Source: a virus
Direction: 5' to 3' (one strand)
IMG/VR virus record: IMGVR_UViG_3300008108_000181
Location: 17,197 to 81,196 of that record
Length of the DNA stretch: 64,000 nt
Under the pieces are notes generated by a model, which did not search any database, had not been told where the DNA came from, and was given only the letters and a program-made list of their open reading frames with translations. Position numbers and translations under genes: made by a program. Positions within the stretch are counted from its first letter, which is position 1, and each line of letters starts with the position of its first letter. Shown piece by piece: positions 32,483 through 41,598 of this stretch.

Positions 32483-33634
32483 TTAAATCAATGCTTTTTT
32501 GTTAAAATCACATTGAAGTAATTTAAATAAATCTCTAATCTCATTGTTTTTAAAAAAGTTTAAATAATTGTGAACTATTACATCTTGCATTTCATTCTTT
32601 AATTCTTTCAATTCATCCAAATTTAATTCGGATATAGTTTCCATCACCTTTACTATTTTATTAAATCGTTTTTTTAAATCAGTTTCAGTATCATAACTCT
32701 CATCCCACCAATTACTAAATGTTTTATAACCCAATTCATGTAATTTATTTAAAGTAAAAGGATTTCCAAATACAATAAAAGGTTGGCATAGGTAAATGGG
32801 TTTGTATGTTTTTTCGGATATAAAAAGTGAATCATTATCATATAGAGTTTCAGTAACGATATTTAAAAAAGATTTTAAATGAGCATCTACATTTAATCTT
32901 GCACCTCCACCTATTTTTTGATTATCCCAACGAGGGACATCATAATAATAGTTTTTATCAACACCTCGTAATGTTGTAATAGATTTATTTTTAAACTTTG
33001 AATTAGTAGTTAATTCATTAAACATTAATAATCTATTTTCTCTAGCTATACCGTTGAAACATAAAAAATGAAATTCAAAATTGGTATTCAAAAATTTAGT
33101 ATATTCAGTTTGATGTGAATTTACTTTTATTGAATCCAATTTAGATATTGATAGAAAGTTTATATGGTTACCAAAATAGTTGTAATTGATTATAGTAAAA
33201 TTATTATTTGAAAATTGAATTAGGTTTGAGGTAATTACAATAACATCATCCTTTGAAAAATTATATTTTTGACATAAGTCATTTATCCAATTCACACACG
33301 AAGTATTGAAATATCCTTCAAGTAAATAAGCAAAAACAATTTTACATTTTTTGAGTTTAATTGATGCTATTAAATTTTCATCTAAATCAATAGTTTTATG
33401 ATTGTCAAATAACTTATTATCAAATAGTATTATGGGATATATAAAATTTAAATTATTTTTAATAAAAAAATGAATACTACTTTCTTTAAAATTACCTAAA
33501 GTATTATCTAATAAATTTGAAATACTTGTTTTGCCACTGATAATCCAATCAGGTTCGATATCATAGTTGTGTAAGTTTAAATAAGATGTATTATCATAAC
33601 CAACATTTATTAATAAGTTTTTTAAATCACTCAT
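32483..33634 (-). CDS. Putative glycosyltransferase (GT-B, GT10-like ET...SEK motif)
   Basis: FLCFNG..R..R, FLNIVTET...FISEKTYKPI...PFIVFG; ends KKALI. Confidence 0.55.
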   Translation of the reverse strand: MSDLKNLLINVGYDNTSYLNLHNYDIEPDWIISGKTSISNLLDNTLGNFKESSIHFFIKNNLNFIYPIILFDNKLFDNHKTIDLDENLIASIKLKKCKIVFAYLLEGYFNTSCVNWINDLCQKYNFSKDDVIVITSNLIQFSNNNFTIINYNYFGNHINFLSISKLDSIKVNSHQTEYTKFLNTNFEFHFLCFNGIARENRLLMFNELTTNSKFKNKSITTLRGVDKNYYYDVPRWDNQKIGGGARLNVDAHLKSFLNIVTETLYDNDSLFISEKTYKPIYLCQPFIVFGNPFTLNKLHELGYKTFSNWWDESYDTETDLKKRFNKIVKVMETISELNLDELKELKNEMQDVIVHNYLNFFKNNEIRDLFKLLQCDFNKKALI

Positions 33635-34251
33635 ATCAAATCAGGTTCAAAGTACTTTTTATAAAAAATTTCAGATAATGATTTATGTGATTTAAATGAA
33701 AGATGATAATCTACTATTTGTCCTTCAGTTGCATCTTTTATAGTTTCAAGACCTTTTAAATCAGTCTGAACATTCCATAAAATTACTTTTTCACATCCCT
33801 TTTGTATGAGGAGTTTTTTAATCCATTCAAATCTTTTTATCTGTCTATTCTTATATAAAATGTTATCTGCAAAGTAATACTGGAAATTTATGATGGTTTC
33901 AAATTCATCATTCGTTAATCCATTTTCGGTTTTACTTTTTGAAAAATCGTGAACTATGGACTCAAAATGATTATTAATTGGTACATCAAATCGGTGGGCG
34001 TGTGTCATTCCAATAAACACATAATCATCTTTACTTATCTCTTTCCACGTATCAATTATAGTATCTATGATTGTATCGTTTGAACTTCCATTCTTTCCAA
34101 GATTTTTTAGTTCAACATTTAATTTATCACTTAACCATACTGGCCAAACCCCATCTCCTGATTTGTAATAACTTTCATAATACTCATCATTTGGATGACA
34201 CCCATGTCCTGCAGTATTACTATCACCAAATGTCCATAGTGTAGATTTCAT
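33631..34251 (-). CDS. SGNH/GDSL-like hydrolase or acyltransferase
   Basis: FGDSNTAG, NLGKNGSSN, DYHLS; ends EPDLI. Confidence 0.75.
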   Translation of the reverse strand: MKSTLWTFGDSNTAGHGCHPNDEYYESYYKSGDGVWPVWLSDKLNVELKNLGKNGSSNDTIIDTIIDTWKEISKDDYVFIGMTHAHRFDVPINNHFESIVHDFSKSKTENGLTNDEFETIINFQYYFADNILYKNRQIKRFEWIKKLLIQKGCEKVILWNVQTDLKGLETIKDATEGQIVDYHLSFKSHKSLSEIFYKKYFEPDLI

Positions 34252-34688
34252 AATTTAGAAGTATAACCAATACTTTCAACTAACTCAAACACAACATTAT
34301 TCCAATCTTCTATTTCAACATGGATTGAATTATATTTTTCTAACATAACACCACTAACTTTTCTGTAAAACCAAGTTGGTGAATACTTTGGTCTTGGTAT
34401 TTGTTTGGTGACATATAAGTTATAACCAAAACAAGTATCTGAAGTAAGTTCTTTAAACCAGACATATCCAATTGGTGTATTGTTTAATTTTAATAAAAAT
34501 AAATAATGTTTTGATTCTAATCTTAATTTGCAATCATCTATATCAAACATCCCATCCCACTTATATTCTGAATTAAATGAATCTATAAGTGATTGAATAT
34601 CGGAAATATAATTTTCTATATCCACTACAAGATGAGTGGTTAGTTCTTCTTTTATAAAATTATCTTTATGTAAAATATATTTTCTCAT
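34248..34688 (-). CDS. GNAT-like acetyltransferase (tentative)
   Basis: PIGYVWF...YNLYV...WN......ESIGY pattern. Confidence 0.5.
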   Translation of the reverse strand: MRKYILHKDNFIKEELTTHLVVDIENYISDIQSLIDSFNSEYKWDGMFDIDDCKLRLESKHYLFLLKLNNTPIGYVWFKELTSDTCFGYNLYVTKQIPRPKYSPTWFYRKVSGVMLEKYNSIHVEIEDWNNVVFELVESIGYTSKL

Positions 34689-39509: not shown

Positions 39510-39659
39510 TTATAAATGGTTTTCCTTTACGGCATTTACAAATAAATTAATTTTATCTGAAATAGCCGATTTTACAGCAGAGTTTGTATTTATTCTCTGT
39601 CTTTTAAATAATTCAGTATAATCTGAATATGTTATATTTTTGTTAATTTCGGTTGCCAT
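39510..39659 (-). CDS. Small 49-aa protein (MATEINKNITYSDY...KENHL), not in the track
   Basis: ATG one base after the stop of 39661..41598; fills the gap in the operon. Confidence 0.7.
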   Translation of the reverse strand: MATEINKNITYSDYTELFKRQRINTNSAVKSAISDKINLFVNAVKENHL

Positions 39660-39660
39660 A

Positions 39661-41598
39661 TTAATTTAGTTTTTTAAATTCTACATCTATTTTATTGTAA
39701 TCAACTACATATAATCCATTTTCATTTAAAGATAATGAATCTTCATAATTAGTTCCAATCAACTCTTGAGCAATAACTCCTTGATATAATCCTTCTTCGT
39801 TTTTGTAATTAAATTGATAAACATTTAACCCAAAATCAGATACACCAATTAAAGTCAAATTTTCTTTATATTGAATATCTGATTTTTGGTCATTACAATA
39901 AGCAGTATTTGATATATACCCACTATGCGGTAAGTAGGTAAATACCGCGGCATTTTTTCCATATACGACTCTTGAACATCCTCCGTAGTAATTCGACCCC
40001 CAATAACCCGGACATGCAGTATTGTATGCATTATCAATGCAAGTATACCAAGCAACACAAAATGCTCCTCCGGCACCTCCGTGTGTATTTACAGCAGTCC
40101 AATATCTACAATCATAACCAAAGTTATGTGTAACTAACCCATATCTACTTTGATTTTCAGTTTCTTCCAAAGTAAGGAATAAATCCAATTCTTCAAAATC
40201 CAAAGTGTATCCAGTAAATTTATCAAATCTAAAATTTACATTGGTTATAGTAGTAATAATTAATTGATTAGTAGTGGTATCGAAGGTAAGAATTTCATCA
40301 CCGACTTTTAACTCTGAATATGTTTGAAATTTAACATAATCACCATCTTTTACCATTATTTCGGCATGGACAACATCACTAAATGTAGAATTAGTATCAG
40401 TTTCAAATGTAACTAATACTCCATAAAAATCAGTAGTTGATTTGTTTTCTAAAAATGATGATGATACTTGATAATCTGTAATTATTGAATCATATGAAGA
40501 GGACCACGCTACCAAACTAGGTGTATCACTTTCATCAGGTAATTCTGCAAATAAAATAGATTTTACTTCATCACCTATTTGTAAATTGGGTGCCAATTCA
40601 ATACTACCATCTGGTAATAGGACTTTAGTATTTTGGGTAGCACTTAACTTTATTGCAACTTGATTAGCTGTTGTATAAAATTTTTGAAGATATCTCATTC
40701 TATCCCAAGGTTGAACTTGATTGGTATCATCAAAATCTGCTGAAGATAGAAGTGGTAAAATTGTTGTTTTTTCTATAACTTGTAAGTTAATAATATCCAA
40801 ATTCGAACCATATAATAAATCTATGCTTCTATATGTATTTAATCTACCATCAAATAAATCGGTATCATTGAAAATATATTCTTGGATATATTCATCAACT
40901 TCCAAATTAGATTTTAAACTATTTAATTCTTCAAGTGTACTAATCTTATATAATTTTGGATAGATTTTATTATCAGAAGGAGTTACTCTTTTTTTAATAC
41001 AATAGTTAGGATGGTTTCCATTATCTCTTAATGTAGTACCAATACTATCTATACCAAATTCATTATCATCAATATAACATTTTGGAATAGAATTATTATC
41101 TGCATCATACATTAACTTTAAAAATCCCCAATTATCTCTAGCGTAATTATCATCAATTAATGCAGTAGTATCAAATGATAATCGTATGATTAGTTTATCT
41201 TCTGTATCTTCTACAAAAGGAATGGTAGTAGAAGTGGCATCTGTGCTTATTGTTACTAATTCTATATTACTTCCAGATAAAAATGATTTTAAATACTGAT
41301 TAAAAGTAAAATTAAAAGGTATGTTTGGTAATGAGTTAGCAGTACGATTTGAATTTATACTACGAAGTTCATTAAGTTCATAATTAAGTGTGTTAGCTGT
41401 TTCCGCGGACCTATTGGTTTCATTTGAAATTAATACAACTTCTGTAAAATTATTTGAAATTACAAAATTTTCAAATGATGCTGAATCAAAATTAAGAGAC
41501 CATTGGGTATCTAATTGAATATTTGTATTTGTTTCTAATGCTTTGAAGGTACCATCGGTATCTTTCATAAAATCAGTACCTATAATAACTGCTCTCAT
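39661..41598 (-). CDS. Polyprotein: permuted ATP-grasp-like domain, Hint domain, Cys/Tyr-rich peptide, peptidase S74 chaperone
   Basis: GTDFMKDTDGTFKALETNTN, PNYCIKKR, YIQEYI; SATQNTKVLLPDGS...LQIGDEV...LVTHN; SDIQYKEN...YQFNY...GVIAQE...VDYNKI. Confidence 0.75.
   Translation of the reverse strand: MRAVIIGTDFMKDTDGTFKALETNTNIQLDTQWSLNFDSASFENFVISNNFTEVVLISNETNRSAETANTLNYELNELRSINSNRTANSLPNIPFNFTFNQYLKSFLSGSNIELVTISTDATSTTIPFVEDTEDKLIIRLSFDTTALIDDNYARDNWGFLKLMYDADNNSIPKCYIDDNEFGIDSIGTTLRDNGNHPNYCIKKRVTPSDNKIYPKLYKISTLEELNSLKSNLEVDEYIQEYIFNDTDLFDGRLNTYRSIDLLYGSNLDIINLQVIEKTTILPLLSSADFDDTNQVQPWDRMRYLQKFYTTANQVAIKLSATQNTKVLLPDGSIELAPNLQIGDEVKSILFAELPDESDTPSLVAWSSSYDSIITDYQVSSSFLENKSTTDFYGVLVTFETDTNSTFSDVVHAEIMVKDGDYVKFQTYSELKVGDEILTFDTTTNQLIITTITNVNFRFDKFTGYTLDFEELDLFLTLEETENQSRYGLVTHNFGYDCRYWTAVNTHGGAGGAFCVAWYTCIDNAYNTACPGYWGSNYYGGCSRVVYGKNAAVFTYLPHSGYISNTAYCNDQKSDIQYKENLTLIGVSDFGLNVYQFNYKNEEGLYQGVIAQELIGTNYEDSLSLNENGLYVVDYNKIDVEFKKLN

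Follow-up and report, generated by a model that had tools for sequence, protein, structure and literature searches.

In a stretch of viral DNA of 64,000 nucleotides (nt), covering positions 17,197 to 81,196 of IMG/VR record IMGVR_UViG_3300008108_000181 and hereafter called the window, a gene island at 32483-41598 begins with a polyprotein (POLY) that is followed by a series of putative tailoring enzymes. Judged by predicted folds and conserved residues, its parts are, from N- to C-terminus, a putative ATP-grasp-type ligase, a Hint domain, a Cys-rich peptide that is hypervariable and, within the clade of the window, a Peptidase_S74 domain (hereafter S74). Many of the enzymes share a short C-terminal tail, and we consider it quite probable that POLY and the enzymes so tagged form one system. 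The best explanation, which we hold at slightly less than even confidence, is phage-encoded maturation of a ribosomal peptide, in which a self-releasing precursor would supply a peptide to be tailored by tag-recruited enzymes.

Domains of the polyprotein and its predicted self-excision

POLY and its four domains map to the window as follows.

39661..41598, minus strand: polyprotein (POLY), an open reading frame (ORF) of 645 amino acids (aa)
40654..41598, minus strand: ATP-grasp-like ligase domain, POLY residues 1-315, assigned from predicted fold and conserved residues
40123..40653, minus strand: Hint domain, POLY residues 316-492, ending His-Asn, assigned from fold and profile
39883..40122, minus strand: hypervariable peptide of 80 aa, POLY residues 493-572, between Hint and S74
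39664..39882, minus strand: Peptidase_S74 domain, POLY residues 573-645, with S573-D-x3-K578, Pfam PF13884

A sequence-only reading of the window had called the first gene of the island a polyprotein; it is a real one, with four domains. The protein was modeled with AlphaFold2 from 97 diverse homologues, with a predicted local distance difference test (pLDDT) score of 86.9 and a predicted template modeling (pTM) score of 0.78. A first model from 14 sequences had been poor (pLDDT of 55.2) and was replaced by this one.

In structural comparison with VIA-align, the Hint domain matches the hedgehog Hint 1at0 with a Z score of 17.0 (root-mean-square deviation of 1.9, 140 residues aligned), the TvoVMA intein 4o1s with 16.7, and the bacterial intein-like (BIL) domain 2lwy with 16.4. 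Foldseek finds the fold at an E-value (E) of 4e-7, and the family profile matches the KlbA intein 2jmz at 3.7e-7. Among the 97 sequences, the C-terminal residues are nearly always kept (H491 in 92 and N492 in 96), Cys is not among the residues listed for position 1 (H24, K18, S17, I8, D5, L5, T4, N4), position +1 varies among Y, A, V, P, F, L, S and G, and the block-B His is kept in only 18. A splicing intein, which would have Cys, Ser or Thr at positions 1 and +1 and Thr-x-x-His in block B, was rejected because of these three places; judged by its residues, the POLY Hint is a cleaving Hint. Because the N-terminal nucleophile and the block-B His are lost while the terminal His-Asn is kept, cleavage would occur only at the Hint's own C-terminus, by Asn cyclization, freeing the peptide N-terminus after N492.

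On the other side of the peptide, residues 569-645 scanned alone reach 22.5 bits with PF13884 against a cut-off of 22, but only 17 bits within the whole protein. PF13884 was also matched in 12 of 14 close homologues, and S573, D574 and K578 are invariant in all 14 sequences examined from the clade of the window (clade A) and in the S74-only alignment. The PHROG matches of this part are C-termini of virion proteins, and a profile search of the PDB with the S74 alignment returned no significant match. In S74 domains a Ser-Lys pair mediates self-cleavage. The pair in POLY would cut before S573, leaving a peptide that ends with Lys572. The self-excising precursor put forward by the sequence-only reading is thus well supported by the conserved catalytic motifs of Hint and S74, from which we infer that POLY excises its own peptide.

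The 80-aa peptide contains 6 Cys, 11 Tyr and 11 Gly, and its last residue is Lys. Its mean identity among 30 close homologues is 34%, compared with 84% for the ATP-grasp domain, 76% for Hint and 83% for S74, and four of its Cys are fixed in 108 of 108 homologues.

A library search with POLY gave 1396 matches at E up to 0.001, of which 77 were at up to 1e-30; the lower-scoring ones include S74-only proteins. Architectures were counted in the best 150 of these 1396 matches, 110 of which are at least 430 aa long. Among the 110, a Cys-rich segment alone ends the protein in 74 (21-242 aa, median 48), a second, canonical Hint starting with Cys follows the peptide in 15, S74 is present in 7, almost nothing follows in 3, and 1 is of another kind. 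The remaining 10 were missed by the His-Asn heuristic, some being S74-only matches and at least one a genuine miss. Because S74 is this rare and most relatives end in the Cys-rich segment, S74 is an optional extra, and its cut would restore a C-terminus ending in Lys like that seen in 41 of the 74 (K within the last three residues). The number of Cys is even in 69 of the 74. Since it is usually even, and since the peptide evolves faster than its flanks, the product may be disulfide-bonded and meet a changing outside target, such as the host surface, competitors or defences.

These counts also bear on the possibility that the enzymes decorate the virion or the host surface by altering a glycan or virion proteins, and that POLY is an adhesin with a hypervariable tip folded by S74. 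The same search returned large fibre-like proteins (2271 and 1323 aa) that have S74 as their C-terminal domain, the PHROG matches are virion proteins, and receptor-binding proteins typically have hypervariable tips. For the sulfotransferase-like and glycosyltransferase (GT)-like proteins described below, the nearest relatives act on glycans; an ORF of 1864 aa follows the island in one distant locus (L020), and a promoter-like decamer, ATATTTATAT, is common to the baseplate block and POLY. However, only 7 of the 110 full-length relatives have S74, against 74 with a Cys-rich end of 21-242 aa (median 48). Neither a fibre shaft nor an attachment domain is present in the N-terminal 492 residues, which comprise an enzyme-like domain and a self-cleaving Hint, and once Hint had cleaved, the tip would be severed from all that precedes it. 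We regard decoration as unlikely.

At the N-terminus of POLY, every listed fold match to residues 1-306 is an ATP-grasp ligase, with Z scores of 5.3-8.8, which is middling as values below 8 are rated common by the tool. VIA-align gives 8.8 to glutathionylspermidine synthetase 2io7 and to YgiC 7uka, 8.6 to 3k1t and 8.4 to 5oeu. The listed matches also include glutathione-synthetase-like proteins, TTL/TTLL, LysX/ArgX and RimK, and Foldseek matches the N-terminal part to yeast glutathione synthase at 2e-4. Across the 97 sequences E22, N24, R139, D149 and R257 never vary, and K202 hardly does (conserved in at least 90%). The Glu-x-Asn, Lys and Arg that we take to be the Mg/ATP-binding residues of ATP-grasp ligases are present as E22/N24, K202 and R257. 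Their order is unusual with Glu-x-Asn first, and chains of the RimK, LysX and TTL type align only from residue ~51. For these two reasons, the domain may be circularly permuted, as eukaryotic glutathione synthetase is. Our best guess is that the ligase would act on the C-terminal carboxylate or the Lys of the peptide.

Co-occurrence with tailoring enzymes and the shared C-terminal tail

The island had been described as one co-oriented, tightly packed unit, and this is what was found. Its 12 ORFs lie on the minus strand from 41598 down to 32483 in the order claimed, with gaps of -4 to +29 nt. Following POLY, they are listed below, where 2OG stands for 2-oxoglutarate.

39510..39659, minus strand: 49-aa ORF, directly after POLY in 19 of 19 clade-A loci
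39210..39491, minus strand: zinc-ribbon-like protein of 93 aa, tail-bearing, with six invariant Cys; phrog_13558 at 7.2e-8
38798..39181, minus strand: SET-domain methyltransferase, tail-bearing; Pfam SET at 2.8e-12
37493..38773, minus strand: 426-aa virus-only protein (GT426), tail-bearing, for which 'GT-like' is a lead from Atlas GT10 neighbors at 0.83
36847..37491, minus strand: putative 2OG oxygenase A, tail-bearing; sub-threshold Pfam 2OG-FeII_Oxy_3
36103..36846, minus strand: sulfotransferase-like protein A, tail-bearing; family profile against heparan sulfate 2-O-sulfotransferase at 1.3e-4
35426..36073, minus strand: 2OG-Fe(II) oxygenase B, tail-bearing; Pfam 2OG-FeII_Oxy_5 at 5e-16 and phrog_81 at 7.7e-30
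34688..35425, minus strand: sulfotransferase-like protein B, tail-bearing, same family as A with 44% identity
34248..34688, minus strand: GNAT-like protein of 146 aa, without tail; sub-threshold Pfam matches
33631..34251, minus strand: SGNH/GDSL-like protein; Lipase_GDSL_2 at E of 0.0031, below the cut-off
32483..33634, minus strand: 383-aa virus-only protein with a near-tail (…KKALI), for which 'GT-like' is a lead from Atlas GT10 neighbors at 0.80

The functional labels first given to these ORFs fared unequally. Those of the SET methyltransferase and oxygenase B are solid, and those of oxygenase A, the sulfotransferase-like, GNAT and SGNH proteins and both GT-like proteins are weaker.

A comparison of relatives had been set beforehand as a test of the proposal, with conserved POLY flanks, a variable peptide and a variable enzyme set expected; all three were found. 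In 18 clade-A relatives, whose POLY is 40-76% identical, the 49-aa ORF and the zinc-ribbon protein come after POLY without exception, and PhoH and HD/hsp20 form the borders of the block. Within the clade, L007 is the only locus without GT426 and L015, whose contig ends early, the only one without the sulfotransferase-like family; two loci lack the GNAT-like protein. SET (4 of 19 loci), the oxygenases, SGNH and the 383-aa protein are present in some loci and absent from others, and a Trp halogenase occurs in this clade too.

At the distant loci L020 and L021, POLY is 25-26% identical, and its neighbors are radical SAM/SPASM enzymes, 2OG oxygenases and sulfotransferase-like proteins, joined in L020 by a carbamoyltransferase, an adenosine phosphosulfate (APS) kinase and a methyltransferase. 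Four further clades contributed nine more loci, in which POLY lies within arrays of Trp halogenases (E of 1e-94 to 2.5e-96), many 2OG oxygenases, radical SAM enzymes and GDSL-like proteins. POLY thus stands among tailoring enzymes in 30 of 30 loci and six clades, down to 25% identity; of these loci, 28 have a 2OG-oxygenase cluster, 26 have the zinc-ribbon protein and 22 have a member of the sulfotransferase-like family.

Island proteins that are not related to one another share the ending K-x-(x)-K-[STKN]-[LIFM]-[ILF]. For counting, a strict tail was defined as K-x-K-[ST]-[LI]-[ILF] at the C-terminus. It is borne by 101 of 143 distinct island proteins versus 9 of 208 outside, or, counted by family, by 17 of 29 versus 4 of 93. 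The same pattern occurs internally at 1% of positions, as opposed to 97 of 132 C-termini. Where 24-29 nt separate two genes, the tail keeps its position relative to the stop codon and not to the next ATG. A by-product of AT-richness or of translation initiation was rejected because of the internal rate, the tracking of the stop codon and the flanking genes, which lack the tail.

Outside the island, tails or informative sequence ends were found on these ORFs of the window.

42414..42776, minus strand: 120-aa ORF upstream of PhoH, tail-bearing, without Pfam match, possibly a member of the system
16892..18607, minus strand: carbamoyltransferase, tail-bearing, away from the island; phrog_1601 at 1.6e-114
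48126..49901, minus strand: B12-binding radical SAM enzyme, tail-bearing, away from the island; Pfam Radical_SAM at 1.4e-14
50280..50603, minus strand: zinc-ribbon paralogue, tail-less; BLASTP E of 6e-8, 31% identity
54079-55014: ORF of 311 aa without assigned function, tail-bearing, outside the island

The paralogue at 50280-50603 serves as an internal control, as it ends where the shared domain ends, without a tail; the BLASTP alignment of the zinc-ribbon protein stops at its last residue. Because four ORFs outside the island carry the tail (the carbamoyltransferase, the B12-type radical SAM enzyme and the ORFs of 311 and 120 aa), the tag would mark a gene set dispersed in the genome. In the distant loci, the strict tail is found on 8 of 19 ORFs in L020, on 5 of 15 in L021 and on 71 of 174 in the nine further loci, where it is borne by 61 of 115 ORFs within 5 kb on the same strand and by 10 of 59 farther away.

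Pelagibacter phage HTVC008M provides a negative control from nature. Five 2OG oxygenases and a Trp halogenase were found in it, and the tail is on 0 of 19 coding sequences in the stretch examined; a sixth oxygenase, read separately, has no tail either. POLY was not found in HTVC008M by tblastn or with the family profile, which finds POLY in 3 of 3 positive-control records.

Trp halogenases that bear the tail occur in POLY-bearing phages (L012, 8419-9630; L036, 5068-6306; L039, 1011-2231). Their homologues in HTVC008M and cyanophages are 32-36% identical and occupy another genomic place. The one in HTVC008M, the only homologue whose end was read, has no tail and lies between terminase genes.

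One could suppose that nothing couples these genes, the island being a hypervariable set of auxiliary genes with unrelated roles and the tail serving stability, timed proteolysis or localization. The island is AT-richer than its flanks, its content varies between close relatives much as islands in T4-like phages vary in gene content, and the same enzyme families are scattered in cultured phages. Against this, POLY and tail-bearing arrays remain associated across six clades, even at 25% identity and with different flanking genes, the one cultured relative examined (HTVC008M) has the same enzyme families tail-less where POLY is lacking, and the tagged enzymes elsewhere in this genome adjoin POLY in relatives. 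An absence of coupling is, in our judgment, quite unlikely.

Alternatively, the released Cys-rich peptide could be covalently joined to the tail-bearing proteins as a common module, for example for packaging or anchoring. The ATP-grasp domain would activate a terminal carboxylate, either of the peptide or of the tail, or a second Hint would give a thioester at the peptide C-terminus, and the acceptor would be the conserved tail lysines or the terminal carboxylate. Among the closest fold matches of residues 1-306 are RimK, LysX/ArgX, TTL/TTLL and glutathionylspermidine synthetase, ligases whose substrates are carboxylates of proteins and peptides, at the C-terminus or on side chains. The tail has its fixed place at the extreme C-terminus and includes conserved lysines, and POLY and tails co-occur in all six clades. 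Moreover, the 15 of 110 relatives with a Cys-starting canonical Hint after the peptide have the layout of BIL2 in the BUBL loci, as far as described in the accessible part of PMC8616854. In a Tetrahymena BUBL locus, according to the same part of that source, BIL2 forms a Lys isopeptide bond without ATP (PMC8616854). On the other hand, a tag for a fixed partner is not expected to be the fastest-evolving part, and the tail-bearing proteins are nearly all tailoring enzymes, for which a shared substrate fits better than a shared fate. Such protein tagging appears improbable.

Proposed peptide maturation and its relation to known systems

We conceived that the island enzymes tailor the peptide, or a glycan attached to it. 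The bank would consist of the oxygenases and the SET methyltransferase together with the sulfotransferase-like, GT-like, GNAT-like and SGNH-like proteins, to which relatives would add Trp halogenase, radical SAM/SPASM enzymes, carbamoyltransferase and APS kinase. The K-x-K-[ST]-[LI]-[ILF]-COOH tail, being shared, would be a portable docking tag that brings the enzymes to a common receptor, most likely on POLY or on its zinc-ribbon partner. A complex prediction for POLY residues 1-495 with the zinc-ribbon protein scored 0.15 versus a mark of 0.32, which speaks neither for nor against binding.

Several points weigh against peptide maturation by tag-recruited enzymes. That the enzymes modify the peptide is something we infer from gene neighborhood. 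A glycan sulfotransferase is the closest relative of the sulfotransferase-like family, fucosyltransferases are where the GT leads point, and carbamoyltransferases of this type are known for sugars and small molecules; given these relatives, a glycan or small molecule would be an equally natural substrate. Disulfide-rich peptides fit poorly with cytoplasmic tailoring. POLY residues 1-315 have no sequence match in Pfam or the PDB, and the ATP-grasp assignment is made from middling Z scores and residue motifs. The tail is sparse in L025 (2 of 16) and L026 (3 of 28); the GNAT-like protein does not have it, nor do several enzymes of the distant loci. Because loci of one phage lineage share gene order by descent, the 18 clade-A loci are not independent and the six clades are the better count. 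Finally, homologues of the Trp halogenase and the 2OG oxygenases are present without POLY in cultured pelagiphages and cyanophages, so that these families have other substrates there.

A reversed form of recruitment is also conceivable, though we think it rather doubtful. Here the peptide would be displayed on a self-cleaving ATP-grasp-Hint carrier, into which, or into the zinc-ribbon protein, enzymes of any fold would plug by their six-residue C-terminal tags; no short leader-core peptide would have to be read by a recognition domain of every enzyme. This would amount to an entire class of viral peptide systems not described so far. If so, phages could swap enzymes freely and make a fast-evolving, decorated, disulfide-rich peptide without an outside protease. 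The peptide would be released or conjugated, and orphan 2OG oxygenases and halogenases of aquatic phages would gain a natural substrate.

Whichever way recruitment runs, the peptide maturation favored here is RiPP-like in kind (RiPP, a peptide made on the ribosome and modified after translation), an assignment made because every single part is of a known kind. What appears to be undescribed is their combination in a phage, where a ligase-Hint carrier comes with two cutters of its own and the enzymes bear C-terminal tags. In the best 120 of 233 homologues in a larger collection, the only names were 'hypothetical protein' and one 'predicted DNA binding protein', and the only precomputed Pfam domain was PF13884, in 3. 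The phage collection contained no cultured match to the 9.1-kb DNA, to POLY or to the 426-aa protein. The precursor design (ligase, Hint and core, with or without S74 or a second Hint) was not found described in the searchable literature, which does not cover supplementary gene lists. The accessible parts of PMC11118758 and PMC4431377 do not describe the POLY family, and that of the former mentions a graspetide cluster.

Known relatives in design can be set beside POLY one after another. RiPP precursors fused to an enzyme are known from the borosins (OphMA), ATP-grasp RiPPs are the graspetides, and Cys-rich peptides made with radical SAM/SPASM enzymes are the ranthipeptides and SCIFF. As in RiPP pathways, a ribosomal precursor with a C-terminal core lies beside tailoring enzymes, with an enzyme domain fused to the core, and as in ranthipeptides and SCIFF, the Cys-rich cores of L020 and L021 have radical SAM/SPASM genes as neighbors. 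Unlike in RiPPs, two built-in self-cleaving domains replace the leader peptidase, the 'leader' is a folded protein of 492 residues, the enzymes share a C-terminal tag instead of each having a leader-recognition domain, and all cases are viral. Graspetide cores have a pattern of Asp/Glu with Ser/Thr/Lys and are served by a stand-alone ATP-grasp enzyme. A graspetide was rejected, as neither Asp nor Glu is among the eight commonest residues of the core and the ATP-grasp domain is fused and probably permuted.

In the Hint release modules of polymorphic toxins, Hint directly precedes a hypervariable C-terminal toxin domain and a trafficking domain is N-terminal. POLY resembles these and BIL modules in that Hint stands before a hypervariable C-terminal module, is predicted to cleave at its own C-terminus and lacks a +1 splicing nucleophile. 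It differs from polymorphic toxins in that the phage cargo is a Cys-rich peptide of 21-242 aa (median 48), the N-terminal part is ATP-grasp-like, and no immunity gene was identified. The POLY model also matched the BUBL-related structures 6tmm and 6y75. BUBL loci of Tetrahymena have ubiquitin-like domains flanked by BIL domains (PMC8616854, accessible part). Likewise, in POLY a small module is bracketed by self-processing domains and its ends would be freed or activated without outside proteases, a layout that the 15 second-Hint relatives copy. Unlike in BUBL, the module is a Cys-rich peptide with no ubiquitin fold, the S74 of the window would give a free carboxylate rather than a thioester, and the ATP-grasp domain is in cis.

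Peptidase_S74 is otherwise the intramolecular chaperone of endosialidases and tail fibres, which cleaves itself off after trimerization. The POLY domain is like these (PF13884) in being C-terminal, having Ser-Asp-x3-Lys and reaching the Pfam cut-off, and unlike them in following an 80-aa Cys-rich segment predicted to be cut loose by Hint and not a long trimeric fibre; most of the POLY family lacks S74. Short C-terminal targeting is known from the cargo-loading peptides of encapsulins and from class I PDZ ligands, x-S/T-x-hydrophobic-COOH, with S/T at -2. The tail is similar in that a few extreme C-terminal residues are common to unrelated enzymes, with S/T at -3 and a hydrophobic last residue. 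It differs from class I PDZ ligands in the place of S/T (-3, not -2), and no PDZ protein or encapsulin shell was identified in the window.

If the peptide maturation is true, aquatic phages make their own modified peptides, and a new type of self-releasing precursor is added to peptide natural products. A six-residue tag may then recruit arbitrary enzymes to a substrate, which would be useful for pathway engineering. Common, unexplained enzyme families of cyanophage and pelagiphage genomes would gain a function, and the hypervariable, Cys-fixed peptide would be a candidate molecule of conflict between phage and host or between phage and competitor.

Individual island proteins, promoter-like element and genome setting

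In the 49-aa ORF, found only in the clade of the window, M1, T3, N6, K7, N8 and the near-C-terminal H48 are invariant. The zinc-ribbon protein, with its six invariant Cys, is the most widespread POLY partner and occurs in 5 of the 6 clades (26 of 30 loci). The GNAT-like protein (Pfam E of 0.027, sub-threshold) was found in 17 of 19 clade-A loci, and its family profile has no match in the PDB.

Oxygenase A matches Pfam 2OG-FeII_Oxy_3 at E of 0.0034 (18.7 bits versus a cut-off of 27), and its profile gave only spurious matches to repeat proteins in the PDB, on a 22-residue stretch. Its homologues stand directly before POLY in L020 and L021. The invariant residues of the family include H120, H122 and H183, with His-x-His where 2OG oxygenases usually have His-x-Asp/Glu, which hints at an unusual metal site.

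The sulfotransferase-like family profile matches heparan sulfate 2-O-sulfotransferase over the first 93 residues. The two copies in the window (245-247 aa) have no Pfam match, and a distant homologue matches Sulfotransfer_2 at E of 0.0033, below the cut-off. The label 'sulfotransferase-like' is drawn from these two matches and from the APS kinase gene of L020. In L020 (6453-7835), the APS kinase gene (Pfam 2.6e-17) is followed by a 125-aa ORF without Pfam match, and in L021 two ORFs of 144 and 121 aa at 6854-7650 have N-termini near-identical to this pair. Together, these genes could supply 3'-phosphoadenosine 5'-phosphosulfate (PAPS) to the sulfotransferase-like enzymes.

Neither the 426-aa family nor the 383-aa protein has a match in Pfam, NCBIfam or a PDB profile search. 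Their nearest named Atlas clusters among language-model neighbors are GT10 fucosyltransferases, which we treat at lead level. The two families show a weak hhalign likeness in one motif block (probability of 4.4%, E of 0.0094). The 426-aa protein is 55-93% identical across clade A, more conserved than POLY. In L002, an 82-aa copy of its N-terminus (7192-7437, 91% identity) precedes the full copy, a sign of recent rearrangement.

The radical SAM enzyme of the window has a sub-threshold B12-binding match (23.5 bits versus a cut-off of 32.1). A carbamoyltransferase homologue stands directly before POLY in L006 and L011, and two genes before POLY in the same loci is a 591-aa ORF, equal in length to the radical SAM enzyme. 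By Pfam coordinates, the radical SAM enzymes of L020 (703-2001) and L021 (1565-2755) have the SPASM domain N-terminal to the radical SAM core, while the usual order is SPASM after the core.

The late-type motif at 41628, from which the sequence-only reading had the unit start, did not hold up. The octamer TATAAATA sits on the plus strand, opposite to the genes, and its 14 copies in the window, versus 16.9 expected, are no commoner than chance. A T4 late promoter was rejected on these grounds. Overlapping TATAAATA on the coding strand is the decamer ATATTTATAT, with 7 exact copies in the window versus 2.0 expected; 1 of 100 shuffles reaches 7.

1050-1059, 7771-7780, 16322-16331, 16817-16826, 41627-41636, 51393-51402, 52182-52191, minus strand: copies of the decamer ATATTTATAT

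All 7 copies precede an ATG by 17-28 nt and none is inside the cluster; the copy at 41627..41636 (minus strand) is 28 nt before the ATG of POLY. The block with the baseplate wedge homologue has four of them. The decamer is probably the phage's own promoter element, common to this block and POLY. Because of these four copies, the 'late' timing is plausible, but not by way of the T4 motif. Since there is no copy between 41627 and a site with one mismatch at 30323, one transcription unit may extend past the enzymes into the NT5C, HD and hsp20 genes.

As for RNA, one estuary metatranscriptome shared 5% of sampled words with the window. When window 30000-44000 was compared at a likeness threshold of 85%, metatranscriptome contigs of relatives, mostly 85-95% alike, spanned most of the island. 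They cover PhoH with the POLY N-terminus, the zinc-ribbon gene to the POLY C-terminus, and the 426-aa gene, and one contig of 2010 nt joins PhoH and POLY. As an RNA library may contain DNA, these contigs were not counted as proof of expression, strand or habitat.

The viral record, of which the window is a part, is 81 kb long and estimated to be 46% complete. All genes of the window are on the minus strand, and the G+C content of the island is 24-27%, against 29-35% in most other 2-kb bins. The flanking genes encode a baseplate wedge homologue, PhoH, hsp20, ThyA, dCMP deaminase and peptide deformylase. By this gene set, the source is a large tailed phage. The nearest cultured PhoH, from a Flavobacterium myovirus, is 58.7% identical.

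The flanking genes are also the ground for supposing that the bases of phage DNA, or nucleotide precursors, are the targets of the enzymes. Genes of nucleotide metabolism are nearby (NT5C-like nucleotidase, HD protein, ThyA-type thymidylate synthase, dCMP deaminase), and radical SAM enzymes and transferases are in known thymidine hypermodification clusters (PMC8989533, accessible part). However, as the sequence-only reading had remarked, no base-modifying kinase is seen in the window, nor any hydroxymethylase beyond a ThyA that scores as an ordinary one; a glycosylase-fold transferase is not seen either. Such pathways have no role for a SET protein, a Trp halogenase or a Cys-rich precursor that cleaves itself, and the neighboring nucleotide genes lack the tail. 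DNA hypermodification is, on balance, highly improbable.

The ThyA-type thymidylate synthase (window 23942-25057) is 371 aa long, and the Pfam model is matched in two stretches, which indicates an insertion.

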